64,000 bases of DNA, from assembly GCA_965645245.1 (NCBI GenBank), contig OZ287081.1:1860001-1924000 (forward strand), given 5' to 3'. Within the stretch, counting starts at the first letter, position 1; every line of letters begins with the position of its first letter. The translations under genes were made by a program, and so were the position numbers. Origin of the DNA: Massalongia carnosa (taxonomy: Eukaryota). The notes beneath the pieces are model-generated. The model was not told the origin of the DNA, ran no database searches, and saw only the letters and a program-made list of their open reading frames with translations. Shown here piece after piece: positions 28,136 to 60,100 of this stretch.

Positions 28136-28179
28136 CGGCTTGATACGACGGATCCAACAAGCACAATCAAATATCAAAA

Positions 28180-31100
28180 ATGACAACAATCGCAGACGAT
28201 CTAGCGAAAAGAAGACCCTTGCCCGTTCTGACAAGGGAGAACTATCAAAGATGGTTCGAGCTGGCCGAAATGCATTTCGAAGCGGAAGGCATCTTTCATA
28301 CAATAAGCGAGCCACAGCCCAATTCCTCGTACCTTCAGCAGCGAATGGACAAATTAAGCCTTGATGGAAAAGGAATAGATAAATCAGACACACCTCTCAC
28401 CCCGGAAACCCCAATTATCGATTCGGAAAGATGGAGAAAGGACAACGCTAAAGCATGCTATCTTATAACCATCTGCTTAAGCCAATTCGATCAAGAACGC
28501 GTAAGAGTGATGAAGACAGCGGCGGAAAAGTGGACCTCGCTGTTAAGCAAGTACAACAGCATCCTTCCCACTTCAGGAAGACATTACCTTCAAGAGCTGG
28601 TGTCATATAAAATGAAAGAGAACACCACCGTTCAGGAAGCATGGGGGGAACTTTTGTTGTTGAGAGACAAGGTCGTCATGGCCACACCCACACTTCGAGA
28701 CGCATTTCCCACTCGGCAACTATTCCAATTACTCTTACAATCTCTCCCAGCCGAGTACGCGGTCATTAGGGACGGAATTGATGCAATTGGGGGAGTAGAT
28801 GCCGAAATTGGCATAAAAAGGTTGGAAGACAAAGAAATTCAGCTAACACAGGCGAAAGCAGATTTAGCCTTGCTCGCAAAGCAGAAAGAACAGCGAAGAG
28901 AGCAGCGACGGCCTCTCAACCCATCCAGAAGTCAAAGCACATTCAACAACTCCAGGCAGGAGCGATCCAGACGGCACGAAAGGTCCTCAAGTGCAAAGAG
29001 AGAAACGAAAATCAAGGACAACTCGCAAAAGGGATGCTTAATCTGTGGAGAAGTCGGCCACTGGACCAAAGAGTGCGAATTCTTGGAAAGCACTCGCAGC
29101 CACGTCAGGAGCCTCGCGAAGAAGAAGAAAGAGGTCAATAAAGGCAAATCATCCGTCAAGCGCCATCGGAGCTATCTCGCTGGCGAGTCAGAAGAAGAGG
29201 ACGAGAACGATAGCTTCTCATCAGGCGACAATGACGATGATCTAGATGATCTCGAGGAAACTGCGGCCCTCTCCAGAGAAGCAGTCTGTAAGATTCCCAG
29301 ATCAAAATGGGTAGCTGACTCTGGCGCATCATCCCACATGACTGACAAGCTTCAGCTCTTTAGCGGACCTCTGACAAAGATTAGAGAAAGAAGAATAAAG
29401 GTCGGCGGGGGAGAATTGAGAGCATGTCATCGCGGTACGTGCGTGATCAAGGATGGGCACGGAAATCAGGGATTTCTTTCTTCTGTTCTTTATGTCCCCA
29501 AGCTAGGGGTTAATCTCTTGTCTGGAAGGCGGATGTGCGAGAAGGGCCTCATCGGAAGTTTCGATCAGCACGGGCTGAAGATGCATGACAAGCAAGGCAA
29601 GGAGATCATGGAGGCACGGCAGCGAGGGGGAGTATATATCGTCGAGAAAATAGCAAAGGATCTCGATGAATTCGCATTAACCGCGTCCATGCATCATGAC
29701 ATTGCCTTTCCAAGCAAAGTTGATATTGCATCACTCTCGTCTTCATCAGAGGCGTTAAAGCCGCGCGGCGCGGGTTTAACATGTCCAACAACACATAACA
29801 ATATGGAAATCGAGATTGAGTCAACACCCGCACTTAACCCAACCAAGACGGACAAACACTCTGAAACGTACAGGCTATGGCATCGAAGATTCGCTCACCT
29901 AGGCCGAGAAAAGCTTCGTAACCTGCATAAGGTCACCACCCTAGAAAAGCCTATTCCGGTCAGCAAAGAAGAGGATCACATTTGCGAGGTATGCGCGCTC
30001 ACTAAGCTCACCAATAAAAGAGGCAAAGCGACCGAGCGAAAAACCTCACTTCTGGCTCTGGTCTCCATCGATATTTGCGGTCCTTTGCCTGCCTCTCGAG
30101 AAGGATACACATACTTTTTGGAAATTGTGGACAACTATTCTAGAAAGATATGGTCCATTCCACTCAAAAGGCGAGACGAAGCACCAGGTGAATTGCGAAA
30201 ATGGAGAATAAAAGTCGAATTACAAAGTGCACAAAGACTATTGGCTGTACGGAGTGACAATGCCACCGAGCTGAAGGCTACTCTTGATGAATGGTGCTCC
30301 TCAATCGGTATTATTCCGCAATACACCGTTCCTCATATGTCTATTCAGAACGGAGTCGCCGAGCGAGCAATTCGTACCACCGAGAACTCGGTGCGAGCCA
30401 TGATAAAGGACGCAGAACTCCCAATCGAATTCTGGAAGGAAGCCATGGAAACTGATGCATATCTTCGGAATCGCACGGGATGCGGACCGATCATCGACGG
30501 CTATGCTAGCACACCGGAAGAAGCCTTCACGGGCGTCAAGCCATCCATTGATCACATTAGGGTATGGGGATGCAAATGCTATTCGTACGTCGATCCCAAA
30601 TCGCTACCCGCGGGGGACAGAAGAGACAAGTTCATGGACAGAGGCAGAATCGGAGTCTTTATGGGATATGTAGAAGAGACCACTAAACAGTATCGTCTCT
30701 GGGCACCCGACATGGGAAAAATCATCAGAAGCCATGTCGTAAAATTTGATGAAAATTTAAAAGGTGGCAGCGTTGATTTAAACTTGCGGAAGCAGACACC
30801 CAACGTGCTACCAGAAAGACGGCCAGTAGGAAGACCACAAAAGACAAAAGAAACGAAAATCAGCGAACCCGCCAAATTAGTAGAAAGATTTTCGCATGTG
30901 GAGGTTTCTAGTCAACAGAATCAAACTCATGACCAACCAAACCCGAAAGATGATGTCACTCAAAACGTACCACCAATCCCAACTTCCGAAGAGTCGCCCA
31001 TAGCGAATGATTCAATCCCAGCCGCAGCTGTGCCTAAGGCTAGCACTAGCATATTCTCTCATGTTGCAATCCCGAAGCGAAAGCGATCTGATGAAGACTC

Positions 31101-32847
31101 AGTTCCCGAAGAACCGGCTTTCAAAATACCGCGCGCTTTTCTAGCGCTGTTCGCCGACGATAATAACGAGGATGAAGATGGCTATCTCAAATTCGAATCT
31201 GCCCTATCGGCTGATGCTTCTTCATTTGAAAGAAACATACCCGAGCCTAAGTCTTACAAGGAAGCAGTAAATGATCCGGTGTGGGGGGAACTATGGAAAG
31301 AAGCAGTGAACACCGAGATCAAGGCGCTCATCGGTAATAAGACTTGGAAAGAAGTTGTTCCACCTCCCAAAACGAACATCGTCACCTGCTAATGGGTGTT
31401 TAAAGTAAAAACCAACCTCGATGGCTCATTGGAGAAGTTTAAAGCAAGATTAGTCGCCCGTGGGTTTACTCAAAAATACGGCATCGACTATGAGGACACT
31501 TTCGCCCCCACGGTAAGATCAGATACCCTACGTGCAGTGCTTGCCATAGTAGCGATGGAAAACCTGGAATGTCATCAAGTGGACGTGAATAACGCATTTA
31601 CCCAATCAACCTTGAAAGATGTCATTTACATGACCGCACCGGAAGGAGTAAACGTTGCCCCTGGTAGAGTTCTTCAGATTCTGCAAAGTCTATACGGTTT
31701 AAAGCAGTCCGCCAGAGAATGGAATAGCCGCTGTACAAATGAGCTGACCAAACTAGGCTTCATTCAATGCTCATCTGACCCATGCCTATTCACTCATCCT
31801 AAAAAGGGAATCATCATATTCATGCACGTAGATGACCTGGTGATCGCCTCCAAAATGATGAAAGAGATCGATTGGTTCAAGAAAGAGTTCAATGCTGCCG
31901 TTAGCATCAAGGATCTAGGAGAAGTGTCGAAGGTTCTGGGCATACGAGTAACCAGAGATCGGAAAAATCGAACTCTTCGAATGGACCAGACGCATTATCT
32001 CAAAGATGTGATGGAGAGAACACATATGAGCGCTGACAAACACAGGCCTACCGAAATTCCAATGAACGGCTATGATTCATTGCGACCGGCTGGAAAAGAT
32101 GATAAGCGCATAGATCAAAGAGAATATCAGCAAATTGTTGGAAGCCTGATGTACGCGGCAATTCATACGCGGCCAGATATAGCTTTTGCTCTTGGAAGGC
32201 TAAGCCAATATCTCAGTGATCCAGCTGCTCATCACGGTCATGCACTAAAGACGCTGCTTAGATACGTTCGGTCCACCATTGACATCGGTATACTGTATGG
32301 GGCTGGGGGGAATCATGGCCAAGGCCTCATTGGGTATTCCGACCCAGACTACGCAGCTGATAGGCTCGAAAGAAAATCGATCTTGGGATACGTGTACATG
32401 CTAGGGGGAGGGCCTATATCGTGGATGAGCAGAAAGCAAAAGTCGGTTGCTACGTCTACAACGGAGGCAGAATACATGGCCTTATCAACTTGTGCTAAGG
32501 AGGGTTTATGGCTCGTTCAGCTGATGAAAGACATAGGCTTCGAGAAATATTTCAGTCATAACGTCAATATTCGTGAGAACTTGACGCATCAAGCTGACTC
32601 CCCGATGCGGTTAAAAGGAGATAATCAAGCCGCTATCCAACTGGCAAAAGATGCTCACATTCATGATAGATCTAAGCATATCGACGTTGCCTATCATCAC
32701 ATTCGGGACCTGCACAAGCGAAATCGAATTCAGGTCGAGTACATACCCAGCGGAGAGATGATTGCCGACGGCCTAACCAAGCCTCTAAATAAGCCCATCT
32801 TCAATCGGTTCATTGGTCAATTGGGACTGCAAAAATGGAAAGAGTAA
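28180..32847 (+). pseudogene. Copia B gag-pol with one nonsense mutation (31390-31392)
   Basis: CLICGEVGHWTKEC; WVADSGASSH; integrase SIDICGP...VRSDNATE; TAA replaces K in IVTC(K)WVFK; RT motif reads HVDD. Confidence 0.93.
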
Positions 32848-35800
32848 GGTAGTATCGCACCGCAAGGGGACTGTTGAATGGCGGTTGCGATTATAGTTAT
32901 AATGGCTTGTTGGGCTCACTGCCTCATAACGTGGATAGCGGGTAGTCTAATCTTCTCTAGGAAGGTTTTAGGTTTAGCGTGCTTTGCCCTTCGGTGAAAA
33001 GTCTGCTCTTTTCCTTTTAGATAGCTATATAGTCAATGCGATTACCTGCAACCAGAGTCTCCTTTTAACTGATGATCATAATCTTTCGTTGACACTGCCG
33101 AAAGGCACCGTAACATGGGAAGCAAGAAACACGTCTAGCACGATAGATTTGGTTTTCATGTCAGAATACCTAGTCGAAAGACTCGAACACTGCATGTCCA
33201 GACCAGAATTGAATCAATCGTCCGATCACGTGCCGATATCAACCCGCATCCTACTCGGAAGCGAGCCGCAACCGAAAATCAAACGCAGAGCATGGAAACT
33301 TCTAAACCTGGAAAAATTAAGGGAGGCCGAACGACACGCCCCTATACCGGAGTCTCCCCGTACCACTGCCGAGATTGATGCGTACACGGAATCGATTCAA
33401 AAATTTCTACAAAATGTCATCAACGAAGCAGTTCCATGGGCAAAATCTAGCGAATATGCTAAGCCATTCTGGACAGAAGAATGCAGCATTGCCACCAAAG
33501 CCACACGGAAACTACGCCGCATATGGTCCAGCACGTTAGACCTAACGGACTGGTCTAACTATATGAAATCCAATGATAAAAAACAGAAAATCATTCAAAA
33601 GGCAAAGAGAACAAACTTTCGTCAAGAAATCAATATGGCCACCGAAACGCCTCAGGGACTATGGCGGCTAGCGAAATGGGCCAAAGACAAAAGTCATCAA
33701 TCTAGAGAAGTATCCAAAATGCCGATGCTAAAATTCAATGACCAAGTAGCAGACACGTTTGACCAAAAAGCCGAAATGCTGAAAGGTGTCTTCTTTCCCG
33801 CACCACCACCGGCCGACCTAAGCGACATAGAAGGATCCTTCTATCCTACATCGCCGCACTGCCCAATAATCATCACCAAGTCAGAAGTATCGACGGCCCT
33901 GAGTCGGCTCAAGTCCGATAAGGCACCGGGCCCAGACGGCATATCTAACAGAATACTCAAAGCATGCAGCGAAATACTTGTCGAACTACTAACACCTCTG
34001 TTTCAGGCGTGCGTCACACACTCGTACCACCCGCGGGCCTTCAAAATGGCAAACACAATAGCGCTGAAAAAAATAGGCAAAGGAGACTATACCACGCCGA
34101 AAGCCTACCGACCAATTGCACTGCTCAACACGCTCAGTAAAGTTATGGAATCCATCATTGGATCGAAAATAACCTATCTGGCGGAAAAACACCGGCTCCT
34201 ACCCGATACACAGATGGGAGCAAGGAAGGGCAGATCCACAGAGTCAGCACTGGAACTGCTAACTGAACAGGTTCACACGATTTGGGGACAGGGAAAAGAC
34301 AAAGTAGCCACACTGCTAAGCATGGACGTCGCCGGCGCGTTCGATACGGTATCACATCAACGACTAACGCATAACCTACGGAAAAGAAAAATTCCAAAAT
34401 GGATCACCGACTGGTTAAACAGCTTTCTGAGCGATCGAAGCACCACTTTAGCAATAAATCGAAAAGTCACTGGGCGGTTTGCGGTAAGAACGGGTATCCC
34501 GCAGGGCTCTCCCCTGTCATCCATTCTTTACCTATTTTACAATGCAGATCTGTTGGAAATATGTGATCGACCAGGCAAAAACACAAGTGCCATAGGATTC
34601 GTAGACGACGCAAACATTTTGGCATATGGAAAAAGCACCGAGGAAAACTGCAAAACTCTAGAGGCAATACACAGACAATGTGAGACGTGGGCTTCCCGGC
34701 ACGGATCCGTATTTGCTCCGACGAAGTACGAACTCATACACTTGTCTAGAAATCCCAAAAGATTCAACATGACTGCATCCATCAATATTGCTAGCACCGA
34801 AATTGAACCTAAAACGGACATCAGAGTATTGGGCCTACAAATCGACACCAAATTGAAATGGGGATCGCACGTTCGCAAAACGCAAGAGAAAATGGTCAAA
34901 CAATCCATGGCATTGACAAAAATTTCCACATCAACCTGGGGTGCCACCTTCGCCAAGGCAAGGCAGGTTTACAGTGCCGTGGTGCGTCCGGCCATGACAT
35001 ATGGGTCAACCGTATGGCACATGCCCAAAGAAGTCAAAAAGTCAAAAACGTCAACGAGCAAGCTCTCCGTCATGCAAAACAATTGCCTTCGCACCATAGC
35101 CGGTGCCTTTAAAGCCACTCCCATCTCAGTACTAGAAGCAGAGACATTCATAGCACCCATAGACACGCATCTCGACATGCTACAAGCACAGGCAAGGCAC
35201 CGGCTCCGAGCCGGAGGCCAATTGAAGATCATCTCCTCCGCATGCAACAAAATAGCTGACAAACTTCGAGGCAAGGCAGGTCGCAAACGACTTCAAAAGC
35301 CCACCCCGGGAGAGCTGAAACACATTTGGGCCAAAAGCCTACTGATCGACTCAAAAATAGTTCAACCACCAAAGGCACACCCACCATGGTTCGAAGTCTA
35401 CCCGGCGTGGCACCGCGAAGCTACCGTTGCGGCAACGGCCCGACACAAGCAGATGCAAACAATCAAAGCACGACAAATGAAGGTCTGGAACGACTCGTGG
35501 TGCGCATATCAAAATCGCGTCATCGAACCCTCCATAGCACAATCAGTCCCACTGAGCAAAAAACGGCTGAAAATACACACGCAGCTAAAAAAGGCAGAAA
35601 GCGCTCTAACAACTCAAATCCGCACTGGCAAGATCGGGTTAGCTGACTTCCTTTACAAGCGACGGGTGCCCTCCGTCACCTCACCGGCCTGCTCATGTGG
35701 CTGGCACAGACAAACTCCAGAACATGTAATCATGTTCTGCAGACTTATTGACAATAGAGAACAGATGTTTCGCGCCGCCGGCACGAGCGACTATCAGCAG

Positions 35801-36299
35801 CTGACCAAATCATCAAAAACTCTGAAGATACTAACTGCTTGGCTAATGAAAACAGGCTTATTGAATCAATTCTCACTAGCATCAACATTATTGTAAAATC
35901 AACAATAGTTGAACCTTTCTTTCTTCCTTCTCTTTTCACAAGGCATTACAGTTCCCACACGTCTTTTGCACTGCGTCTCCCGCCCGACGTCGACACGTAG
36001 TCACATCGGACGGGTATCAAGGGACATGGTTTTTACACCTGTGAAAGGTTTTCCATGTAACATAACTTAGATAGCTTTGCCCGCATGGGCCGGCCTACGG
36101 CCGGTGTCATATCGGAGTATGAATACATCATCATCATCATCATCAATAGGTTATTTATCAAAATATTTATCGGTCGTCTTCGATATTCAAACCCGCATAA
36201 GCTAGATCTACAATTATAGTGTTGAAAGAGTTAACTTATCAACGCATCGACGATCGCACAAGCTACAAATCGCATGAGTAGCTTATTGTGGATTTCTTG

Positions 36300-43758: not shown

Positions 43759-46700
43759 TTATTCTAAGCCTAAAGCTTTTCGAAAGACAACAAATTTGTC
43801 CTTTGGTAGGGCCTTGGTTAGGCCGTCAGCTACCTGTTCTTCGGTAGGAACATAGCGAAATTCCACTGATTTGTCTTCGATCTTCTCTCTTTGGTAGTGC
43901 CATTGGATGTCAATATGCTTGCTCCGCGCGTGTGCCTGGGGATTTTTGGCCAAAGCTATTGCTCCTTGATTGTCGCAGTGAATGATGATAGCATTTAGGG
44001 CGAAAGATGTAGGCAAGCAGGCAAGGGCTACAGAGGTGCTCTGGGTTTGGAGAGAGTGTATCCCAGGGACTTGAGGTGCTGAAAGTTGGTCGAGAAGACT
44101 AGACAGCCAGACGGCTTCCTTGGTGGCTTGAGTCTGACCCATGTACTCGGCTTCGCATGAAGATAGGGCTACGGTCGGTTGTCGTTTGGAAGACCAGCTA
44201 ATAGCGCCACTACCCACATTAAACACGAAGCCTGAGGTAGACCTTCGGGTATGATGATCTCCGGCCCAATCCGCGTCAGTGTAACCGTTCAAGGGTTGTA
44301 AGTGACCTTTGTATGTTAACTGCAACGGTAGAGTGCCCTTGATGTATCGAAAGATGCGTTTGACTGCCTTCCAGTGCGTATCGGTCGGGTTCGAGGCATA
44401 GCGGCTGACCACCGATACGGCGTAGGCTAAGTCAGGCCTAGTGCCTAGCATAGCATACATGAGAGAGCCCACCGCTGATTGGTAGCGGAGGCGAGAGTCA
44501 TCTGTGGCCTGATGGCCCTCTGGTGCAGCCTCCAGTCGCCCATCCATCGGGGTAGCCACGGGGTTAGTGTCCCACATGCCATGGTCGCGTAGTACTTTTT
44601 CCAGATAGGCCTGCTGACCAAGGCGAAGAATCCTATTAGCCCGATCCCGAGTTATCGTCATGCCCAGGTAGTAATTGATAGGGCCTAAATCAACCATCGA
44701 GAACTCGTCACTCAGCAGTTTCTTGACACGTTGTATCTCGGAAGAAGAAGAGCCAGTGATGATTAAATCATCGACGTAAATGGCTACGATAACCCCTTCT
44801 TTAACGAAAACGCTAAGGTCGGCGTTGACTGGAACGAATTCATGAGACTTGAAAAAAGTAGTGATCGTTTCATACCAGATTCTAGACGACTGTTTCAGGC
44901 CATAAAGAGCTTTCTTCAACTTGCAAACTCTCGTTGACCCGTCATCCAGACCGGTTGGTTGCTCCACGTAGATTTCCTCGTCCACCCTTCCGTACAAGAA
45001 GGCTGTTTTTACGTCCATTTGGTGGATTTCCCAATCATTGGCTGCAGCGATAGCGAAGATGGCTTTATAGCTCATTGGCTTCACTACTGAAGCAAAAGTC
45101 TCATTGTAGTCAATGCCTTCACGTTGCTCAAAGCCTCTGACTACCCATCGAGCCTTGTAACGAAGAATCTCGCCAGCCGGGCCTCGTTTGATTTTATAAA
45201 CCCATTTGCCTCGCAGGGCTTTGCGGTCCGGGGGCAGGGAGGTGAGGATCCAGGTATCATTTTCGTTGATAGAGTCAATTTCTTCCTGCATTGCCCTTCG
45301 CCAATCCTTTTCCTCCCGACTATCTACGGCCTGTTTATAGGTTTTAGGCTCGTATGGCTCCGGGTCATTGGCTCGAGCAAGAAGAGCCAAAAGAGCAAGC
45401 GGGTCAGGCGAGGGGGCGCGAAGTTTTGGATGCTTAGAGAGAATATCTGCCTGGGACCAAGGCTCAATGGGCAGTTGGTTTGCCAATGCCTCTTTTCCAG
45501 CGTTTGATGGGAGAGGTCCAGTGGGAATTGATTCTATGGATTCATGAGCGTCGACTAAGTCCGTATGAGGGGAGTCCGTATGATGGGTAATTTTTTGCTT
45601 TCTTGTGGGCGGTCCTGACTGTCCAACATGTAGGGCTCTTTTAGTTTGAGAGAATGATAAGGAAGGAGGAGTTGGGGGGTTGTTATCTATCCACTGAACA
45701 TTGGAATAACGCATGACCGCGCCCCGTGGATTTATCATTCGATAGATGTGATCGCCTTCGTATCCTACTAAAGTACATTTGGTGGCTCGTTCCTGAAATT
45801 TCTTCCATCCGGTGGAGGGCTTGCGATTTTGCGCATAGCCAGTCTGTCCTATTATCCTTAGATGTCCTAGTTCTGGTGGGCTGCCGGTGTGAGACTCGTA
45901 GGGGGTGATGGAGCGTCCCGCAGTTGGTTGTCGATTTCTTAGGTAGTTGGCAGTGAGAACCATCTCAGCCCAATATTTGATGTCTAGTTTAGCGCCTTCT
46001 CGCATGGTGCTGGCTAACTTGTGAAGCGTTTGACCTAGGCGCTCGGCTGTCCCGTTCATGGGTGGATTTCCCGGTACGGTAGGTTCCCACTGAATGCCAT
46101 GCTCGTTTCTGAAATTCTCGAAGTCCTTGGAGTCATACTCACCCCCACAGTCCGATCGCAAGCGCTTAATTCGTTTGTCCCCATATTCATTTTGCTTCTT
46201 GTAGTTTTTAAAAGCTTGAAGGACTCCGCTTTTGACGCGCAGTAAGGTGACGTGGGACCGTTTATCGAAATCGCAAAGAAAGGTTACCATATATTTGGCG
46301 CCGTTCAAAGCTTCTGGGAAAGGTCCTTGGACATCACTGTGAATTAAGTCCAGCGGGTGCTTGCCTGGTTGGATGGGGGCCCGGTGTGGTTCTACTTGGG
46401 ACTGAGCGATGGCGCACGGAGGACAGGCGTCTTGGGGCGGGGGCTTGGTGAGGTCCATTCCTTTTGACATGCCAGCGAGCTTGAGAATGTTTTGATTTCC
46501 AAGATGGCCTAAACGAGCGTGCCACATTTTTATCGCCTCGCTATTAATTGCAGCAAGAGCGAGAGCGGCTTCAGAGACGTTCCACATATTCAGGATATAC
46601 AGATTGTTGTCCTGGCGGCGAGCGATAATACCATAGTTCCCGATTTCAATTCCCTCTGGTACAATCTTCAGGGGACATCCATCTCGTTGTAATTGTCCTT

Positions 46701-47883
46701 GGGAGATGAGATTTAGGCCTCCGTCCGGAACGTATAACACATCGAAAAGAGGGAACTCCCGAAGACCCTCGTTACCGGCACACCGCAACATGACGTTACC
46801 TATTCCTTTGGGAATTAATACTCCTCCAATACCTTGAATTGGAGGGCAATCGGATGTCTTGAATGAGGTGAAGATGGAGCGATCGTGGGTAATATGTTGG
46901 CTAGTTCCAGAGTCACAGATCCAGAGCTTAGATATTTTGGTTATATCTGCGGTGGCCATGTAGGCGCAGAAGGCTCCTTTGGTTGAGTCATTGTTTCCGG
47001 TTGGCTTTTGGCTTTGACCTTGACTTTTGGAATTCCTACGACGCTTATTGGACTTACGCTGTGAGTCTTGGTTAACGAGGTGTGGATATTTTTCACGACA
47101 CTCGCTCTCTACGTGATAGTCTTTTCGGCAGTGGTTGCAGAACTTGATGGTCTTGGTGATGATTCGAGAATGGGCTGTTCCGGGTTGAGCTCCTGCTTGG
47201 GTTTGAGCGTTTGAAACAGCTGCCATTGCGATTACGGCCTTATCGCTGGACTTGCTTGGGTTGGTCACCGTGTTTTGGAAATGCTGCATAGCCTGACTTA
47301 ACGTGTGCTTGGGTTCACCCATTTCATTGAAAGGATCATGATCCTGAGCGTATCGTTCGAAATAGCTGTTGTATTCGAAGCCTAAATTGGTATGGAAGCG
47401 ATAGATAAGCCAGTTTTCGTCCAGGCTTAGCTTGCTTGAGAAGGTGCGAAGCTTATTCACCGTGGCGCGAAATTGGGTAACGTAGTCTGCAGGGCTGCTG
47501 CAATCCGATAGGATAAGGTTGTCTAATTTTCTAAAGGTGTCATTGAGGAATCCCGAACCGCGAGGCTTATAGTTTGACTCAAGCAGGTCCCAGGCGACGG
47601 AAGCAGTAGTATGGTCTTCTATATCGGTGTAGGCATTTCCTTCACAAGCTAATCGTAGAGCAGTGCAGGCCTTATCTTGGCCCTTTTTCCATTTGTTGAA
47701 GCCATCATTGGGAGCGTTTGGGCGTGGTGCAGCTTCGGTGTTATCACAATAGATCCAAAGATCTATCATTTTGAGGCAATCTCGCATGGCTCGCTTCCAT
47801 GCTGGATAACCCTCGTGGTCCACTAGCTTAGGGATCCTATCAATAGCGCTATAGGACCCCGATCCAGAGATTTTTTCACTCAT
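43759..47883 (-). CDS. Intact Copia gag-pol polyprotein (1374 aa)
   Basis: CNHCRKDYHVESEC; WICDSGTSQH; WHARLGH; HSDVQGP...LRSDCGGEY; IYVDDL; YTDADWAG...VADGLTK. Confidence 0.96.
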   Translation of the reverse strand: MSEKISGSGSYSAIDRIPKLVDHEGYPAWKRAMRDCLKMIDLWIYCDNTEAAPRPNAPNDGFNKWKKGQDKACTALRLACEGNAYTDIEDHTTASVAWDLLESNYKPRGSGFLNDTFRKLDNLILSDCSSPADYVTQFRATVNKLRTFSSKLSLDENWLIYRFHTNLGFEYNSYFERYAQDHDPFNEMGEPKHTLSQAMQHFQNTVTNPSKSSDKAVIAMAAVSNAQTQAGAQPGTAHSRIITKTIKFCNHCRKDYHVESECREKYPHLVNQDSQRKSNKRRRNSKSQGQSQKPTGNNDSTKGAFCAYMATADITKISKLWICDSGTSQHITHDRSIFTSFKTSDCPPIQGIGGVLIPKGIGNVMLRCAGNEGLREFPLFDVLYVPDGGLNLISQGQLQRDGCPLKIVPEGIEIGNYGIIARRQDNNLYILNMWNVSEAALALAAINSEAIKMWHARLGHLGNQNILKLAGMSKGMDLTKPPPQDACPPCAIAQSQVEPHRAPIQPGKHPLDLIHSDVQGPFPEALNGAKYMVTFLCDFDKRSHVTLLRVKSGVLQAFKNYKKQNEYGDKRIKRLRSDCGGEYDSKDFENFRNEHGIQWEPTVPGNPPMNGTAERLGQTLHKLASTMREGAKLDIKYWAEMVLTANYLRNRQPTAGRSITPYESHTGSPPELGHLRIIGQTGYAQNRKPSTGWKKFQERATKCTLVGYEGDHIYRMINPRGAVMRYSNVQWIDNNPPTPPSLSFSQTKRALHVGQSGPPTRKQKITHHTDSPHTDLVDAHESIESIPTGPLPSNAGKEALANQLPIEPWSQADILSKHPKLRAPSPDPLALLALLARANDPEPYEPKTYKQAVDSREEKDWRRAMQEEIDSINENDTWILTSLPPDRKALRGKWVYKIKRGPAGEILRYKARWVVRGFEQREGIDYNETFASVVKPMSYKAIFAIAAANDWEIHQMDVKTAFLYGRVDEEIYVEQPTGLDDGSTRVCKLKKALYGLKQSSRIWYETITTFFKSHEFVPVNADLSVFVKEGVIVAIYVDDLIITGSSSSEIQRVKKLLSDEFSMVDLGPINYYLGMTITRDRANRILRLGQQAYLEKVLRDHGMWDTNPVATPMDGRLEAAPEGHQATDDSRLRYQSAVGSLMYAMLGTRPDLAYAVSVVSRYASNPTDTHWKAVKRIFRYIKGTLPLQLTYKGHLQPLNGYTDADWAGDHHTRRSTSGFVFNVGSGAISWSSKRQPTVALSSCEAEYMGQTQATKEAVWLSSLLDQLSAPQVPGIHSLQTQSTSVALACLPTSFALNAIIIHCDNQGAIALAKNPQAHARSKHIDIQWHYQREKIEDKSVEFRYVPTEEQVADGLTKALPKDKFVVFRKALGLE

Positions 47884-48487
47884 GATGGAAAGGGTTTATT
47901 GGAAGAGCTTAATGGATTGTCCTTGTTAACGGACTGGCTTGAACTGGTGTTTGGTTTTACCGGATTCCGACGGAGTGCTATTATAAGTGCTTGGTGACTT
48001 GGTTCTGGCTCTTAGATCGAAAGGATCACAGTCGCTGGGCGGTTCTAGGTCCGATTTTGATGTGGACTGACCGGGAGTGACTGGAGGCTCAGGGATGATG
48101 GTACAAAGCAATCCAATTTTGATTGATCTGAGTTATCCTCTAAGAGAAAGCAACGATTTCCGCACTAGCCGCCTGTAATGTATGTTGTGAATCCCGTTCA
48201 AGCCTTGTTGCCGGCCTATTATTTGGTTGAGGCTCTGAGAGTCATTGGATCTCGGCAAGAGTGCCACGTAGGAATGGGGCAGTGATTGATATAATAGATC
48301 TAAACGCAGAAGCAGATGCAGGTGCAAAGATAGATTTGAGGCGTTTAGTTGTGCCTTTGGGGTTGATAAATCGAGAGCGTTTTTTGTTGCTCGAAGCCAT
48401 AATCCTGCAGTCTTATAACTGATACGCAGATGCTGACTATGAATAGAGGGCAAAATCGATTACAGGGAGATTTGGTTTCATCCCAAT

Positions 48488-50398: not shown

Positions 50399-51877
50399 TA
50401 CGGAGACATTGAAAAAATTATATGGTAGGCCTCGAAAGTACTCTACTGCTGATGAAGCTGCAGCGGCCAAGAGACGGCAGAGTCGAGGTTATTACCACAA
50501 TCCATCGTGCCCGGTTGGTCTTGCAGGTCCCGTCGACTTTGTTGCCTACGAGCATCTACCTACATCCGATATCCCTAGCGAAACCCTGCCTGCCATTGGT
50601 CTGCGAACCAGCCTCCACATACCAATCCCTCCGGATCGCGATATAGCGGAAGACTGTGAGAAAGAGCTTGAACCCGAAGCATACTAAGGATAATCCCCCT
50701 CAAACTGCAACTCCAAATTCCCTACACGAGGAACCCGAAATCGTTCAACAAGTTGAGAAAATACGCACAGAGGAGGTGACAAATACTGAAGACGCAGACT
50801 ATGATGTGGAGGTCACGGCACGCTTGGAGGAGTCGGCAGCCTATCTCGAGGCAGCAGCAGTACTCCAGGCACTACGAATTGGGCAACAAGAGAGGCAGGA
50901 GAGCAGCAAGGCCGGGTCACCGTATTCTGACTACGCCGCCTAGTAGTTTAGTGATTTGAATCAGCAGCACCTAGACACAACAGCACACCAATTTATAGTC
51001 CACCGAATACAGATATACAACAGGGCAGTTCAGCGCATACTGCAGATACATGACGCAGTCACAGCAGGACTTCCAAGGCTCAGTCAAGTAGCACCAGTAG
51101 TAGACGTAGGACTTCGTTCCCAACGCAGATAAACACGCTATTATCATGGACTAGTTCGTGTCAATCTCGTTATATTGCTACTAAGTATGTTTGGGCTATT
51201 GCTCACAGCCCCCGGCCTCGAGAGGGGGACTCGATAAGGGCCTTGCTGTCTACTAATGTAAGACCCTCTCGCAGGCCTTGGGCTGTGAACAGACTCCCTC
51301 TATCTAAGCGACAGAAGAACTGGAGTGGGTGGGTGGGAAAGAAAACGTTGCAAACAGTGCTATCAAAATGCTATGCTTTTTGATTGTCTTGAGATGTGAG
51401 ATGATGAGGGATACCGTCTGGGACCTCCTCTTTATATATCTTCTTCCTATTCTCCTTGTCCTACTCTACCATCCCAGTATGCCCCATCAACGCGGCCCAT
51501 AGCAAGGCATACACAAATCCGAAACCTAACTGTCGTCCGAAGGATCGATGCGGTGCTAAGATCTCTATGCCGTGCTGAGACATCCTTATGGTGCTGAGAC
51601 ATCTATGCCGTCCGAGAGATCCATGCGGTGCCGAAATCAAAGCGGGAGCTGTCTCGATTAACGACGCACTAGCTCTCAGCATAGCCGAACTAGCTAGTTC
51701 GTGTCAATCTCGTTATATTGCTACTAAGTATGTTTGGGCTATTGCTCACAGCCCCCGGCCTCGAGAGGGGGACTCGATAAGGGCCTTGCTGTCTACTAAT
51801 GTAAGACCCTCTCGCAGGCCTTGGGCTGTGAACAGACTCCCAATCCCCAACATGGAACGACCCGCTTGCGGTGTTGT

Positions 51878-52933
51878 TCAGGACCTAGTGACTGGATTGT
51901 GAGGTTCCGTGGGTAATGTTTGAAGGCGTTTTGAGGCGTTAAGAAGGTAAGTGGGGTGGGTTTGTATGTAAAGCTTGTATGCGTCTGACTTCCATCTTCC
52001 TAGCATCTGAATCTCGTCTTCGGTGAGTCCTGCCCGTCGCGCTGTTGTTGCCGCACCTCTTCTGAACGAGTGGCCAGAGAAATTTCCTATATAGCCCAAG
52101 TTCCTTAAGGTGGATTTCATCGCTGTTGTAATGTAGTCTCGAGTGAAGGACTGACCGTTTTTAAAGAGTGGTGCGGCCGGAGAACTTGGGAATCGCCTAT
52201 ATAAATTTGTAAGAGAAGCTAGTGCACAAGCAACATCGTTGGTAGCCGCAATTGTCAGTGTTATGCCTCGGCGAAAGGGATCGGTTTTGGAGACTGGTAG
52301 AGAGAGCTGTAGGTGATCTGCTTCGAACCTAATAGATTTTCTGGTGAGGTGCCATTGATCAAAGCTTGGGTCTAGTACATCTTGCGTTGTGTAAGTAAAT
52401 TCTCCGGCTCGTAAGAAGCCTGCAAACGCTAAGCAGTACGCCGCATGTAAATTTGCGCCTTTCTCTTTCGTTTGATCAAGACGACTTAGCAATTTGATTA
52501 AGATCTCTCTAGTAATTGGTAACCTTTCACGTTTCTCGGCTTCACCGTTCTTTCGCTTTATGCCAGTAAGGATGCGATCTAACACCGGGTGATGAAATAC
52601 GTCGAGATTACCGAGGCCCATATCTATCTGGCATGATCTTATGCCCGTCAAGTAGCTCTTAATAGTTTTTGGTTGCAGGCGTCGTTCACCCAACGCTGCG
52701 ATCCACGAAGACAGCGTCCGGATGTTGGCTGGAAATGGTGGCGCGTTGAGGTTTACCCTACAGTAAAGAACGTATCCCTTTCTTGCCGTTGTGTATAAAG
52801 ATCTTGTCTTAGTGGCCAGGCCCCACCAGAGGTATCGTGCTGCGATTTCGTCTAGAGGTACCTCACTGTACCAAGATGGGGGTGGATCGCGTCCTATATT
52901 GCTGAGGGTAGAGCCTGAAACTGAGGGATTTTG
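51878..52933 (-). CDS. Tyrosine recombinase (open frame of 351 codons, no N-terminal AUG)
   Basis: Catalytic set FLRAGEF (R), SKTDPF (K), HSFRRG (HxxR), LGRW...AYKLY; the frame extends upstream of the track ORF (RYLWWGLATKTRSLY...PFPA) and overlaps RT by 40 nt. Confidence 0.93.
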   Translation of the reverse strand, partial: QNPSVSGSTLSNIGRDPPPSWYSEVPLDEIAARYLWWGLATKTRSLYTTARKGYVLYCRVNLNAPPFPANIRTLSSWIAALGERRLQPKTIKSYLTGIRSCQIDMGLGNLDVFHHPVLDRILTGIKRKNGEAEKRERLPITREILIKLLSRLDQTKEKGANLHAAYCLAFAGFLRAGEFTYTTQDVLDPSFDQWHLTRKSIRFEADHLQLSLPVSKTDPFRRGITLTIAATNDVACALASLTNLYRRFPSSPAAPLFKNGQSFTRDYITTAMKSTLRNLGYIGNFSGHSFRRGAATTARRAGLTEDEIQMLGRWKSDAYKLYIQTHPTYLLNASKRLQTLPTEPHNPVTRS

Positions 52934-54510
52934 TCAGCCAGTTTCTTCAAAAGTCCTCTAGACAAGAGATCAGCAATATAATTTTCTTTGGATGATATCC
53001 ATCGCGCTTCTATCTGGATATCATGTAATGCAGCTAGCATTGTAATTGCCCGCAGGGCATGCATTGCTTGGCCTCGTATAGAGGTTTTATTCACTCCTTT
53101 CGTGACAGCGTAGCTATCACAATAGAGGATTAAATGACTACCCTTGCATATAGGTAGCCACTTTTTCATAGCTTGAAGAATTGCTGTCATTTCTTTGACG
53201 TTGATATGCTTTGCCCTAAGGTGCGTAGTAAAGCGTGTGCTAAAAGCCTGCCGGGCTGCTTGTATATTATGCAAATTTTGATCCTCGCTGAGGATAAAGC
53301 CGCCCATACCATATGAGCCGGACGCATCTGTCCATATTCTCATAGTATGTCTAGTACGGTTGAGCAGATGTATGCCATTCCATTTAGGTAGGAAATGATG
53401 CCACCATAGAAGATCAGCCCTCATGTCCTTGTTAAGATGGATTAGTTTAGAGGTTACGCTTGCCGTAGCATTGAAAAGACGGCGTAGAAAGGCTCTTCCT
53501 GGTTTTACCACTCTGGCTGCAAAGCATAAGAATCCTAGAAGAGAGTCGAGTTCCTTCCTGGGTATGGCTTTTTTATTCAAAGCTGCCGATACTAGGGTCT
53601 TTGCTTTTAGTAACTTTTCGGAAGGCAAGCGTGCTTCCATGAGCGCGGTATCGATTTCAATGCCGAGGAAATCGCAAGTCGTTCCAGTTCTGTTCTTTTC
53701 GAGCTTGATTTTCATGCCAAGATCTTTACAAATGTTGTGGAAAACTTGATCAAACTTTTCAGCATCTGGTCCGGTGCTGACTATTATTAAAAAATCATCC
53801 AAGTAATGAATAGCGTCTTTCCAACCACAGTTGTACAATATCCAGTTGATACCCTTCGCGAACAGATCAAAAAGGAACGGCGACGTTCTCAGCCCAAAGG
53901 GTAAGTATTTATCCATCCAAAAGGAATCCTGCCACTTGAAACCTAGTAACCACCAATCGCTTTTTGCTACTGGTATGTGGCGAAAAGCGTCCGCAAAGTC
54001 TCTTTTAATAAGAATACACCCTGGCCCGCGTTGCTCAATCAACCTAATGGCTTCGTCGAAGCTGGTATATTCCAGGGAGCCCCAGTCTTCCGGTATGTGG
54101 TCGTTGACTGAGCTACTCTCCGGATACGATAGATGATGGATTCGCCGCCAACCACCGTTAGCCTTTGGTACAAGGCCTAATGGGGAACATATAAAGCAAG
54201 AAGGAATGTTGTTGACTTTCTCCAACCGATTACTAGCTATTTGTTCTTCGAGGTCATTGGTAAGAACTTCCGGTGCCTCATTTGCAGAGGCAAGATTATC
54301 GCTAATAATGAGTTGATGTGGTCCTGTATAACCAACTTTGGCACCGTAGGTGATGATATCGATAATTGTTTGTGTGTAAGTGCGATCCGGGTGATTGGCC
54401 AAATGTTTCTCCCAGCCTTCTTTCTTCAATGGGCCCGGTGGGATCTTTGTTAGATTGTCCGTCAAGGTGTATGGAAAGGACTCCGCGATGGATAAGAATG
54501 GGGCGGTTAG
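52894..54510 (-). CDS. Ngaro reverse transcriptase + RNase H (in frame with gag, no N-terminal ATG)
   Basis: SPLGLVPK, WRRIHHLS, DFADAFRHI, LPFGLRTSP, HYLDDF; WTDASGS, HINVKEM, YCDS, NYIADLLSR; the frame is open directly from the gag stop. Confidence 0.93.
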   Translation of the reverse strand, partial: LTAPFLSIAESFPYTLTDNLTKIPPGPLKKEGWEKHLANHPDRTYTQTIIDIITYGAKVGYTGPHQLIISDNLASANEAPEVLTNDLEEQIASNRLEKVNNIPSCFICSPLGLVPKANGGWRRIHHLSYPESSSVNDHIPEDWGSLEYTSFDEAIRLIEQRGPGCILIKRDFADAFRHIPVAKSDWWLLGFKWQDSFWMDKYLPFGLRTSPFLFDLFAKGINWILYNCGWKDAIHYLDDFLIIVSTGPDAEKFDQVFHNICKDLGMKIKLEKNRTGTTCDFLGIEIDTALMEARLPSEKLLKAKTLVSAALNKKAIPRKELDSLLGFLCFAARVVKPGRAFLRRLFNATASVTSKLIHLNKDMRADLLWWHHFLPKWNGIHLLNRTRHTMRIWTDASGSYGMGGFILSEDQNLHNIQAARQAFSTRFTTHLRAKHINVKEMTAILQAMKKWLPICKGSHLILYCDSYAVTKGVNKTSIRGQAMHALRAITMLAALHDIQIEARWISSKENYIADLLSRGLLKKLADKIPQFQALPSAI

Positions 54511-55665
54511 TCATTGCCTTGATGGGAGAGGCATCGAATTTGGGTTAGAGGGTTGATTTTTTCCATTTGTACAGTCCATCGCCCGATGTTGCTTTCCACA
54601 TTTCTCACACACATGTTGGAATCTACAATATACGGGACAGTCTTTGCCATAGTTGTATTTCTTACAGATAATCTTTTCGCCTGAGGTTTTGAAAGCCGTA
54701 GAATTATCGTCCGGTTTTGCAAAGTAAGCGGACGGTTTCCGCACAAGATGCCTTTCCAAGGAATGGTCCATTTCTTTCCATCCATCCGGGTTGTCAATCC
54801 CGCGAAAGGCTCGAGATTTGTGGAAATTCAAATGAAAGATGCGAACCGAGTCCCAGGTGTAGAAGGCGTATAATGATAGAAGATGGTCCTGATAAGCCAT
54901 GAAGGCTCTCATCAGGTTTATCTGGAGACCGGGGTGTGCAAAGTGTAGTAGTATCATCCAATATACCCCGAGACATCGTATCAAATGAACTATCCCTTTG
55001 ATATCTTTTAAGGAGCCATCTTCTTCTCTCGTGGCGATTTCCAGACCTTCTCCGAGTTTGACGTATCTAGAGTTGGTTTGAACTCCGTCGATGTCGGTAC
55101 ATAGCTTGGTAATGTTGATTGGGTCAAACGTATTCTCGGAGATTTGCTTTATCCATATGGGCTTGATAGTGGGATATTCGTTCATAAGAGAAACAAAACG
55201 AGGATCCATACCTTCTGTATACAATGAGTTTGGTCGATGCGGTGGAAATGATGTCGGAAATAATAGGGAAGGCTGTTGAGCTGAGGCTACTGGCCCAGGG
55301 ACCACGTCTCGGGCACGTGCTTGTTGGGTTTCGATATCCCGCCTAAGACTTACTCTTTCTCTTTCCTCGGCTTCCCTGCGGGACATTTCGCGTTGTGCTC
55401 TAAGTTCAATAATGTCATCAGGGGTGCGAGAACGGGTTTCCGGTATAACAGGCCCTTGTGAGGAGGAATTAAACGCTGAAGATGGAAGAGGAGAAGGTTG
55501 AGGATGGCTTTGAAGGGTTGCCGTGCTGTCTTGTGAGTCGGGTACTTCGACGTCTGGGTTGGAGTTGGCTAGATTTGCCCTAGCTCTAGTTCTAGTACGG
55601 GCTAGAGTGCTGCCTTGTGTGCGGGAGGTAGGCTTGGTGATTCTGTTGGAGATGCGGGTGGCCAT
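54511..55665 (-). CDS. Ngaro gag-like protein with a C-terminal Cys/His finger cluster
   Basis: First ATG at 55665 (MATRISNR); CKKYNYGKDCPVYCRFQHVCEKCGKQHRAMDC. Confidence 0.88.
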   Translation of the reverse strand: MATRISNRITKPTSRTQGSTLARTRTRARANLANSNPDVEVPDSQDSTATLQSHPQPSPLPSSAFNSSSQGPVIPETRSRTPDDIIELRAQREMSRREAEERERVSLRRDIETQQARARDVVPGPVASAQQPSLLFPTSFPPHRPNSLYTEGMDPRFVSLMNEYPTIKPIWIKQISENTFDPINITKLCTDIDGVQTNSRYVKLGEGLEIATREEDGSLKDIKGIVHLIRCLGVYWMILLHFAHPGLQINLMRAFMAYQDHLLSLYAFYTWDSVRIFHLNFHKSRAFRGIDNPDGWKEMDHSLERHLVRKPSAYFAKPDDNSTAFKTSGEKIICKKYNYGKDCPVYCRFQHVCEKCGKQHRAMDCTNGKNQPSNPNSMPLPSRQ

Positions 55666-56111
55666 TTTTGGAGGAGAGGGATTTGAATAGAGTAAATTTA
55701 AGTGTAGTGGTTGTATAAATTTGAATTGGGTGAAAAGAAAACGTTGCAAACAGTGCTATCAAAATGCTATGCTTTTTGATTGTCTTGAGATGTGAGATGA
55801 TGAGGGATACCGTCTGGGACCTCCTCTTTATATATCTTCTTCCTATTCTCCTTGTCCTACTCTACCATCCCAGTATGCCCCATCAACGCGGCCCATAGCA
55901 AGGCATACACAAATCCGAAACCTAACTGTCGTCCGAAGGATCGATGCGGTGCTAAGATCTCTATGCCGTGCTGAGACATCCTTATGGTGCTGAGACATCT
56001 ATGCCGTCCGAGAGATCCATGCGGTGCCGAAATCAAAGCGGGAGCTGTCTCGATTAACGACGCACTAGCTCTCAGCATAGCCGAACTAGTGAAGCCTTTG
56101 ACAGGTGTCGT

Positions 56112-56424
56112 TGTTGGATGTTAGATGATGAGGCCACCATCATCATTAGCATCCATCATGAGCCTCGGGAGGTGCCTTGCAAAGTGCCTAAACAAGCAGA
56201 GATGGGAGACAAGGTCTGACCGTCAGGGGGACAAGGTCTGACCGTCAGGGGGACAAGGTCTGACCGTCAGGAGGACAAGGTCTGACCGTCAGTGGGACAA
56301 GGTCTGACCTCCTAGATGTGACTGTTTTGTAACTGCTATATAAAGCAGACAAATAGCCCACATAGATAATTACCTTCAATGACAATCATGCTACTATACC
56401 TACAAAGTGAATTTATATTTCATA
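56112..56424 (+). mobile_element. Solo LTR of the Copia C family
   Basis: Matches 39675-39921 but has five rather than two copies of a ~22-bp repeat; flanks gtcgt/gtcga (TSD with one mismatch). Confidence 0.9.
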
Positions 56425-57120: not shown

Positions 57121-60100
57121 TTAGCGTATGCAAAATGATTTGCAATTTCGCTTATGAAAACACATACAACCAACATGACCCCACCATTCAAACTCCAAAA
57201 TCTTAATTTTCCTAGATATTCCCTAATCGTGCCAAAACACTAAACCCTAACCGAGTCAGGGTCTAGTGCCCGACGGTCAACTGACGCATACAGTCTACTG
57301 ACGCACTTTTCCTATTTTCACTACCATTTACACCACTTCGTTCATCTACCACCACATGCCTAACTCATATTCTAATAAGGAGGATCAAATTGTCGATGCT
57401 ATAAACGCGTGGAACACGGTTGAATTTCGAAGTATACGCGCAGTAGCCATTTGATTTCGATGTCGACATTCGTACGCTTCAAAGACGACTTGCTGGAGGG
57501 GGTTCGCGCATCGGTCGATCTGGCCCTAACAAGGCCTTATCTGATGAACAAGAATTGGCCCTTTGTGAATATATTGTGATGCTCGATCAAGCCGAACAAT
57601 CAGCCAGGTTTTCAATGGTTCTGGGGGCTGCTAATTATCTACTAAGAGAAGCTCATTTAGACGCCTCCATCCCCCCCCCTCACGTCAGCGAGGCCTGGAC
57701 CAAACGTTTCCTCAATCGTCATTCTCAATTTTTCAAGCGAAAACACAAACCTCTGGCCGCTGAGCGAAAACACGCGCACAATGCAAAGGACAGGCTCGAG
57801 TATTTTGAAGCATATCGAACTGCGCGAAAGACGCGGGGAATAGCGGAAGAGGACGTTTGGAACATGGATGAAATGGGCTTTCGAATTGGCTGTGACAGGG
57901 CTCATTGGGTTATATCAACTCACTCCAGAAAGCCCTTGCTATTGACAGATCCAGATAATAGAGAATATGTCACCTCGTGTGAGTGTATTAGTGCTGGGGG
58001 GCGAAACATTCCCCCCATAGTGATTATAGCGGGGGTTTTGATTCTCGAAAAGTGGACACAACAAAACGATCTGAATGACGATGTTTTGTTGACTACTAGT
58101 CCTACCGGCTATTCCAATGATGATTTGGCTATTGATTGGTTGAAACATTTCGATAAACACAGTCGAAAGGGTCAGGTAGGGGCCTGGCGTATGTTGATCA
58201 TGGACGGGTATGGATCTCATATGACATATGAGTTTTTTACATATGCCAAACGAAATCACATTGAATTGTTTCGTTTGCCTCCTCATTCAACACATCTCAC
58301 TCAGCCATTGGATGTAGGATGTTTTCAGCCGTTCAAAAATTATCATTCCGAAGGCATTGACGAGATGGTGCGACTCGGAGGGGCAGATTTCGACAAACTG
58401 GATTTTTGTCCATTTTTCAGCGCATGCGAAATCAAACATTCACCTCATCTACCATATTATCGTCATTCAGAAACACGGGTCTGGTGCCTTATAACCCCAA
58501 TGTGGTAATTCGAAAGCTGGAGGAAATTCAAACTCGGAGACTTGCTACCCCCCCACCTTTGTCAGCCCCTCTGCTCGCCAGAACGCCCCGCACGACTAAA
58601 GAGGTGGTTGAATATGGCTTACACCTTCGAATGAGTTTGAATAAATACAACGTGCTGGACAATGAATGGGATTGTCATGTGAATCGATTTGTGAAGGGCT
58701 CTACTTCCAATGCGCATGCACGTCAGATTATTGAGCGGGACCTTCGAGCCAGTCAACAACAGTCCATCGCGAAGGCGGCCCGTAGAAAATTGGATGGTAA
58801 GGTCGCCCAGAAGGGAGGGGTCATAACTGTAGGAGATGTACGGGCCAAAAACCTCGAAACGTTGTCAGAACGAGGTGGAAAAGACCAGACTGGCCTATGA
58901 ACGTGCCACACTAGCTGCTGAAAAGAAGCAGATTGCCCTGGACAAAAGGTATAAAAGAATCGCTAGATCAATGCCCAGACAAGCGAAGCTATTTTACCAG
59001 CGTCATAATCAATCAGTTTCTGCATAACCGTTGTTGTCCTCGATTTGTAGCAGAAATGGTAGTGAAAATGGGAAAAGTGCGTCAGTAGACTGTATGCGTC
59101 AGTAGACCGTCGGGCACTAGACCCTGACTCGGTTGGGGTTTAGTGTTTTGGCACGATTACACCAAAATCCTAACATATTTTTATAATTTGGTAGACATCT
59201 ATAGAAATTATTATGCCTCCAAATAGACGGAGTAAAAAGGGACCAGTTAACCAAGTTTTGCTGCCGGCACCGACTCGGGGGGGTCGTCGCCGCCAAGTTC
59301 CTGCTCGCCTACGAAGCTCGCCCACCCCTCTTGGTCCTAACCCTCAAACCCCGCTCCAGGGTGCACGCCGTCCCCATGAGAGCCCTCCTAATCCTCCTAA
59401 CCCTCCTTCTTCTCCTCCTGTCGGCGCCCGTCTTCCAGCCCCTCCACTGTTTCCTCCCTTAGATGCTCGACCTCGACCCCCCCCCGGTTCCACGCCGCCC
59501 GAGTGCGCGTGACGACCATACACCGGTATTCACCATGAAAACGCCCAAGATTCCCGGCAATACTCGCGAGGGGAAGGCGGAGCGTATGTTATGGCGTGCA
59601 CATTTGGAGAGAAGCAAGGAGGCCGCCGCGCGAGCAAGAGCGAGACGAGATAGGGAGGATGAAGAATGGGAAGCGGAGGTCAATCAATTCGGGGAACCGG
59701 AAGCCCGACGACGACGACTGGAAGAAATAGAGGTTAATAAAGAATTAGACAAATTGACTACATCGAACTTTGAGGAAGATGAGGCTGAAGATCTAGTATC
59801 AGATCCTATGTTGACCGTTCATGCTAGACTTCGTGTCAATGGTAGAGTTATATGGACCTCATCGCTAGGTTCTAAAAAACGAAGCGTTTTCAGCATATGG
59901 GATTTCGAACAGACATTGGAGACTGAGATTGAGAAAAGGAACGGGCATACTAAAGGATGGACGACGACCTCCATCGTCGTCATTATTAAGGCCATTCATA
60001 GTCGGGCCAGGAATGTCCATCAAACCATTGATAATTATACTGAGACTGAATGGGAAAAGGTTCTAATTGTCATTGATGATGAATCTCGTAAATGGAAGCC

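Follow-up and report, generated by a model that had tools for sequence, protein, structure and literature searches.

Splicing of the Gag N-terminus as a likely source of the start-less tyrosine recombinase in an Ngaro-type retrotransposon

How does a retrotransposon produce its integration enzyme when the reading frame encoding this enzyme contains no start codon? This question is raised by an element found in a stretch of 64,000 nucleotides (nt) of the Massalongia carnosa assembly (contig OZ287081.1, positions 1,860,001 to 1,924,000), which we refer to as the window and whose numbering we use throughout. The element occupies positions 51151-56089 of the minus strand, and is an intact retrotransposon of the Ngaro type, an ordinary member of the Ngaro group, whose open reading frames (ORFs), reading the minus strand, follow the order gag, reverse transcriptase/RNase H (RT/RH) and tyrosine recombinase (YR). 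All features of the element given below lie on the minus strand. Examination of this element and of its relatives makes it likely that YR is made by splicing the Gag N-terminus (ending at 55212) onto the YR frame (beginning at 52920).

The recombinase belongs to a large protein family, as a search with the window protein retrieved 1484 homologues; the homologue details used here were drawn from the best 120 of these. In an alignment of 24 sequences the catalytic positions R, K, H-x-x-R, W and Y are conserved, with K216, W314 and Y322 invariant and R175, H288 and R291 conserved in at least 90%, and all of these residues are present in the window protein. The Pfam Phage_integrase model matched with 20.4 bits (E = 4.6e-4), under its cut-off of 27.1. 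Homology to other recombinases begins at an RDPP motif (52891), and the frame ends at a natural stop at 51880-51878. The first-pass annotation of the window had described the YR frame as opening behind a TGA, as having no methionine for over 100 codons, and as overlapping the end of RT by 40 nt in the -1 frame, and all of this holds on the minus strand: the frame opens at 52933, just past the TGA at 52936-52934, its first methionine is residue 105, and it runs in frame +2 (that is, -1) relative to RT across a 40-nt overlap that ends with the RT/RH stop (TAG, 52896-52894).

The missing AUG is a trait of the family and not a defect of this particular copy, since same-family members show no AUG either. 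In the P0001 cluster, whose YR is 100% identical to that of the window, 10 of the 13 members were called by gene callers as a product of 247 amino acids (aa) starting from Met105. Another member, of 271 aa, begins where the window has TTG, so that an "M" assigned by a gene caller need not represent an ATG. The 104 residues preceding Met105 are conserved across the wider family (for example in the motifs RDPPxxWY, ARYLWWGLA and KTIKxYL), and must therefore be translated.

As a source of the missing start, the first-pass annotation had proposed an intron, and its signals were found in place. Within the RT/YR overlap, a candidate branch site, GCTGAC (52933-52938, with the branch A at 52934), is followed by a candidate 3' splice site, CAG| (52921-52923), whose AG is 13 nt from the branch A; a second in-phase AG occurs 6 nt further downstream (52916-52915). 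The TGA contained in the branch site is the same stop that opens the YR frame. The candidate 5' splice site, AAG|GTATGG (55206-55214), lies within gag in the context GAAG|GTATGG, with its GT at 55211-55210, and among the four GT[AG]NG[TG] hexamers of the gag ORF it is the only one in phase 1. The acceptor is in phase 1 as well. The coding part of the proposed exon 1 (55212-55665) extends over 454 nt from the ATG at 55665 and contains Gag residues 1-151 plus one nucleotide, the proposed intron (52921-55211; 2291 nt) holds the gag core and nearly all of RT/RH, and the proposed exon 2 (51878-52920) is the tyrosine recombinase. The joined frame is the predicted in-frame Gag(1-151)-YR: its junction codon, G+TT, would encode valine, and it is open for 498 codons up to the natural YR stop. 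The exon 1 product would be basic at its N-terminus and include a charged helical stretch. The match in phase is by itself a 1-in-3 event in a single copy, as had been pointed out from the start, and support beyond chance comes from the relatives. The branch site and the acceptor are also enclosed by a perfect stem of 11 bp (52970-52980 / 52895-52905; UAUAUUGCUGA / UCAGCAAUAUA), which ends in the RT stop.

A metagenome scan provided 80 loci with 36-56% YR identity, most of them with gag and RT upstream. One locus, L079, was left out, its YR match starting only at residue 65, and the resulting comparison set of 80 elements (79 of the 80 loci and the window) was grouped into 53 clusters at a nucleotide identity of at least 85%. 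In 45 of the 53 clusters, the RT/YR junction carries the motif [AG]CT[AG]A[CT] followed, mostly after 12 nt, by YAG. In these 45 clusters the YR frame is opened by a stop that coincides with the TRA of the branch motif, and a YR-frame codon begins at the G of the AG. The eight clusters without the acceptor motif are truncated or degenerate copies, or variants; variant acceptors are seen in L068 (GAG), in L076 (CTAAC-N4-CAG) and in L040, which is without a canonical branch site. An AUG at the head of the YR frame, whose presence in other copies had been raised as a point to check, was found in none of the same-family copies. Among the distant clusters, 11 of 45 have an ATG in the interval from the acceptor to the YR domain and 34 have none, and this ATG is not stable within a single cluster, with L041 having Met and L066 having Leu at this place.

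The branch/acceptor region also codes for a peptide of the RT tail, (I/V)(A/T)(D/N)xxPQ(L), and we therefore tested synonymous sites, using 41 cluster representatives in which the codons were located by RT protein alignment alone. The Ala/Thr codon within the branch site has T as its third base in 39 of the 41 (entropy of 0.33 bit), and the Gln530 codon at the acceptor is CAG in 37/37, and never CAA. Third-base entropies of invariant residues are 1.76 (Ala513), 1.94 (Gly480), 1.90 (Leu486) and 1.95 bits (Ser517). The proline codons that lie between the branch site and the acceptor are free in their third base (CCA 27, CCG 6, CCT 3, CCC 2), and the four-fold codons at position 528, which encodes Ala in 25 of the 41 clusters, end in A in 20 cases, in C in 7, and in G and T in one case each. 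In L037, the CTAAC is kept in a different codon register, where it is read CTA ACA (Leu-Thr). Judged from these alignments, the constraint on the acceptor region acts on nucleotides, exactly at the positions that a spliceosome reads.

The donor was compared by aligning cluster representatives on the Gag protein of L052. At the aligned position, all 22 representatives have xGT, and in all 22 the next codon begins with A; this codon has G as its last base in 19/22, and T opens the codon following it in 22/23. The donor of the large subfamily reads R|GTAYGT, in phase 1, and is located in a variable linker of Gag where the encoded residues change from element to element (G/S, M/T, Y/F/S/C/L) and where the 15 codons preceding the donor are unconserved at all three positions. 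Elsewhere in Gag, entropy at the third base reaches 1.93 bits in the codon of Gly237, a conserved residue. Distant lineages have a phase-1 G|GTA at the homologous place in Gag, which reads GTATGG in the window, GTAATA in L003, GTAATG in the L008 family and in L076, GTAGGT in L040, C|GTACGT in L006 and GTACTA in L001. When the donors upstream of the Gag core are ranked by score, a phase-1 site comes first in 18 of 21 clusters; two clusters have ties, and one (L076) is contrary. The conservation in relatives that the splice proposal called for is thus borne out, with donor, branch site and acceptor kept at the nucleotide level, synonymous sites included, at YR identities of 36-56%.

We computed the joined frame in 20 elements, and in 12 of them it was open through a full-length YR; the remaining ones had early stops inside YR, as expected of degenerate copies. 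The predicted intron measures 2255-3072 nt in 19 relatives. In L003, exon 1 is limited to seven codons, so that there the splice would mainly donate the AUG. A separate conserved site lies 13 codons past the donor, where L052 gag codons 222-224 (GAG AGC GCA) and their homologues have third-base entropies of 0.27, 0.90 and 0.83 bit; in some elements a GT precedes GAG AGC GCA, creating a second phase-1 GTGAGA. This site may act as an enhancer of splicing or serve as an alternative donor.

Two proteins contain a Gag-N-like stretch, that is, one similar to the Gag N-terminal part, running straight into YR: P0018 (513 aa; present in NCBI and Logan) and P0121 (encoded on a 28-kb contig). Residues 78-150 of the window Gag match residues 32-110 of P0018 with a score of 34.3 bits, which none of 2000 shuffles reached (best 25.4), and the Gag similarity in P0018 ends at window Gag residue 150, one residue short of the proposed exon end (151). 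P0018, which is known from its protein alone, has the appearance that a retrotransposed spliced RNA would have. As a lead only, its nearest clusters in a protein atlas are mostly from Basidiomycota and measure 388-497 aa.

What is directly observed in the elements compared is the splice signals themselves, the phase they are in, their conservation at the nucleotide level and the dearth of alternatives. From them we infer that the splice occurs, and that the N-terminal domain it would share between Gag and YR has a role. The full-length unspliced transcript would serve both as genomic RNA and as the messenger RNA (mRNA) of Gag, with Gag-RT/RH arising through occasional readthrough of the single in-frame TGA. 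In a fraction of the transcripts, the host spliceosome would join 55212|55211 to 52921|52920 and remove 2291 nt. The spliced mRNA would begin at the gag AUG and encode Gag 1-151, the junction valine and the complete recombinase, about 498 aa altogether. The splice would in this way supply the start codon missing from the YR frame, and would give YR the same N-terminal module as Gag. For this module, which combines a basic and a coiled-coil-like stretch, nuclear import or the joining of the complex of Gag and complementary DNA (cDNA) are plausible roles.

Several observations weigh against this splice. The clusters share ancestry, and counts such as 45 of 53 are not counts of independent events. 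The donor of the window, GTATGG, differs from GTAYGT at +6, and a perfect GTAAGT is present upstream of it (55353-55348), in phase 0, from which splicing to the YR acceptor would give an out-of-frame product. An intron of 2.3 kb is also far above the length typical of fungal introns. In 11 of the 45 clusters an ATG is found just before the YR domain, and the two closest protein-only relatives, P0002 and P0003, were called from an "M" located 13-14 residues before RDPP. The fused protein P0018 could be a one-off rearrangement: searches with the whole of P0018 and with its residues 1-137 retrieved no second fusion and no partner Gag, and when a Gag-N profile of the large subfamily was run against 1.84 billion representatives, none of its 94 matches continued into YR. 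Of these 94 Gag-N-bearing representatives, 27 continue into the Gag core.

YR could also be reached without any splicing, by a -1 ribosomal frameshift in the 40-nt overlap which, after readthrough of the TGA, would yield a Gag-RT-YR polyprotein. Such a mechanism would suit the -1 offset of YR from RT, which nearly all relatives have, as well as the A AAT TTA found 6 nt before the RT stop in the L008 cluster and the C CCA AAA of L027. However, the overlap of the window contains no X XXY YYZ heptamer, in line with what the first-pass annotation had reported, and across the stretch from the point where the YR frame opens to the YR domain just 2 of 45 clusters possess one. Moreover, the folding signal of the region around the overlap is not significant (z of -1.66, with 12 of 200 shuffles folding as well), the RT-frame tail past the junction varies in length from 0 to >1000 nt, and a frameshift leaves unexplained both the conserved GT donor in gag and the synonymous constraint on CTRAY and CAG. 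We therefore consider frameshifting improbable as the general route to YR. For the L008 family, frameshifting and splicing are both possible: A AAT TTA occurs in four of the five copies L008, L009, L011, L012 and L013, with L013 having only C CCA AAT, and the RT stop of this family comes directly after the acceptor AG (CAG, or TAG in L009).

Less probable still, in our estimate, is that YR is translated on its own from unspliced RNA, whether by initiation at a non-AUG codon such as the ATA at 52897-52895, by reinitiation or by internal entry. This ATA (Ile13) occupies the place of an M in the called proteins of some relatives ("MGRDPP" in P0009 as compared to "IGRDPP" here) and overlaps the RT stop as A-TAG, and a true ATG is found one codon before the YR domain in the 11 clusters mentioned above. 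Yet the residue at this position varies between M, L, I, F, R, Q and P in the relatives, even within a cluster, and a gene-caller "M" can stand for TTG. The RT stop is at no fixed distance from the start of YR, and since the RT tail past the junction can be absent or exceed 1000 nt, a coupling between stop and restart is not conserved. In addition, no ribosome would get this far without first reading through the gag stop, a rare event, and the conserved splice signals would again have no explanation. The least probable of the explanations considered is that the splice-like motifs are by-products of coding or mere chance, and that this family makes either nothing more of YR than the 247-aa product from Met105 or no YR of its own, the YR of another family then acting in trans. 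The motif region does encode a conserved RT-tail peptide, gene callers do begin the same-family protein at Met105, and a second Ngaro family (P0002) is present on the same large contigs. Against this explanation stand the synonymous positions, which are fixed where relevant for splicing and random next to these, the CTAAC that L037 keeps in another codon register, and the donor, which forms an island of nucleotide conservation in an unconserved linker; a product from Met105 would, furthermore, be without a conserved domain, the 104 preceding residues being conserved. We also examined whether a short intron could join RT to YR, and rejected this: a moderately good GT at the right length was found in only 8 of 43 clusters, and none was conserved in both position and quality.

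The joining of gag to pol, for which the first-pass annotation had suggested stop codon readthrough, was also analyzed. The layout in the window fits this suggestion, with a single in-frame TGA followed by CTA separating gag from RT (gap 0, frame 0), a leaky stop context in which readthrough may occur, and the same layout was found in L001, L003, the L008 family and others. In a large subfamily, by contrast with a single-TGA layout, the gag stop lies inside C|GTTAG, and GCT[TC]AC-N9-12-[ACT]AG is found 96-140 nt further on. Once this candidate gag-RT intron of 96-140 nt is removed, gag runs into an open RT frame in 9 of the 13 clusters (L018, L022, L025, L038, L043, L044, L049, L065 and L075), and in 9/9 of these the intron length modulo 3 equals the frame offset between gag and RT (the offset being 1 or 2 in three of them). 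In four clusters, readthrough is ruled out because the spacer between gag and RT contains stops. On this evidence, the lineage of the large subfamily seems to use splicing for pol too, an independent use of splicing that speaks in favour of the YR splice. In the window itself, the gag TGA is followed by a CTAAC and, after 20 nt, by CAG|AG (54483-54513), a phase-1-compatible acceptor that could be joined to the 55211 donor to give a fusion of Gag-N to RT; L001 and L003 show no conservation of this acceptor.

The overall layout of the element is that of the Ngaro type. Its 5' split direct repeat, A1 (55734-56089; 356 nt), is 100% identical to A2 (51338-51693; 356 nt), and B1 (51694-51841; 148 nt) is 100% identical to B2 (51151-51298; 148 nt), which forms the end of the element and is separated from A2 by 39 nt. 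The repeats are thereby arranged as A1 - internal - B1-A2-B2, as the Ngaro type demands, and the sequence in matching contigs diverges beyond ~51150 and ~56093, marking the limits of the element. The gag ORF (54511-55665) extends from an ATG at 55665-55663 to the TGA at 54513-54511 and encodes a Cys-rich C-terminus; it has no Pfam match, and homologous gag ORFs are located upstream of RT in the loci of relatives. The RT/RH ORF (52894-54510), which continues the gag frame past the single TGA, matches Pfam RVT_1 (2.9e-14, above the cut-off) and RT_RNaseH (6.8e-08). No Pfam match to a methyltransferase, a protease or a DDE integrase was obtained in the three ORFs. As all ORFs are intact, the copy is a young one. 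Near-identical copies of the element were found in sequence runs labelled as four different organisms, with a single T>C difference at 53222, and the contig word depth over the element is ~21,000 in run X3, which we read as a sign of a high-copy, recently active element. The contigs of runs X3, X2, X5 and X6 show no joint at 55212/52920; three joints, confined to X2, fall within RT, have sides of 29-35 nt and do not coincide with splice signals. These contigs are DNA-like and of unrecorded kind, and have no bearing on RNA.

The element is surrounded in the window by a nest of transposons, comprising three copia-type polyproteins, two LINE-like ORFs (one of them with RNase H) and one pogo/Tc5-type DDE transposase; the ORF intervals of this nest are 9607-13071, 16530-20450, 28144-31392, 32978-35896, 43759-47895 and 57447-58508. 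Approximately 115 nt beyond the 5' end of the element, at 56204-56313, there is an array of four overlapping 44-nt copies placed 22 nt apart (a 22-nt period, GGGGGACAAGGTCTGACCGTCA).

The proposed device resembles the subgenomic splicing of retroviruses, and is closest to the env mRNA of avian sarcoma/leukosis viruses. In these viruses the 5' splice site is located a few codons past the gag AUG, and env borrows the start codon and first residues of gag. L003, with its seven-codon exon 1, would be a close analogue of this arrangement. The avian viruses differ in being retroviruses whose downstream gene is env, whereas here the downstream gene encodes the integration enzyme, and most elements would share a whole domain of 80-210 residues. 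Host splicing also sets the protein ratio or joins the frames in the case of foamy-virus Pol, which has its own spliced mRNA, of gypsy-type env mRNAs, of the spliced copia gag RNA and of the Ogre intron. To our knowledge, there is no YR element among these, and in no case is an integrating enzyme fused to an N-terminal domain of Gag.

Among YR retrotransposons, the Ngaro elements of the DIRS order, in the available part of the description by Muszewska et al. 2013 (PMC3783388), have the same order of gag, RT/RNase H and YR, are likewise without protease, DDE integrase and methyltransferase, and have the same split direct repeats, A1 ... B1-A2-B2, with the YR frame offset from that of RT; that part describes no expression mechanism, no splice and no Gag-YR fusion. 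DIRS-1 of Dictyostelium is also a YR retrotransposon with overlapping ORFs, whose mode of YR expression is not established according to the sections covered of Malicki et al. 2020 (PMC7192593). It differs in having inverted repeats with an internal complementary region, as well as a methyltransferase, and in those sections only an artificial marker intron is spliced in DIRS-1. Natural splicing of a YR retrotransposon was found nowhere in the portions of the literature searched (PMC7192593, PMC8547959, PMC3783388, PMC4157794, PMC6681497 and PMC13465315). The splice device is probably new for YR retrotransposons, splicing in retroelements as such being already known.

A broader model, to which we give about even chances, is that Ngaro elements of the basidiomycete type conduct their whole expression through the host spliceosome, using phase-1 sites. 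In this model unspliced RNA would give Gag, removal of the 96-140-nt intron would give Gag-RT/RH (with readthrough taking its place in the lineage of the window), and removal of the 2.3-3 kb intron would give Gag-N-YR, whose shared domain would tether YR to the complex of Gag and cDNA. From time to time a spliced RNA would itself be retrotransposed and leave behind an RT-less Gag-N-YR gene like the one encoding P0018.

How a YR ORF that overlaps RT and often has no start codon is expressed has not been worked out for DIRS, Ngaro, PAT or VIPER, and the published accounts, as far as they were covered, say merely that it is possibly "frameshifted". A conserved splice, if true, would explain why the AUG of the YR ORF is dispensable and why the stop preceding the YR frame is always found inside CTRAC, and would account for how the element sets the ratio between Gag, RT and YR. 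It would also predict a new protein species, the Gag-N-YR fusion, and provide an annotation rule for fungal YR genes, which are currently shortened by gene callers to an internal Met.

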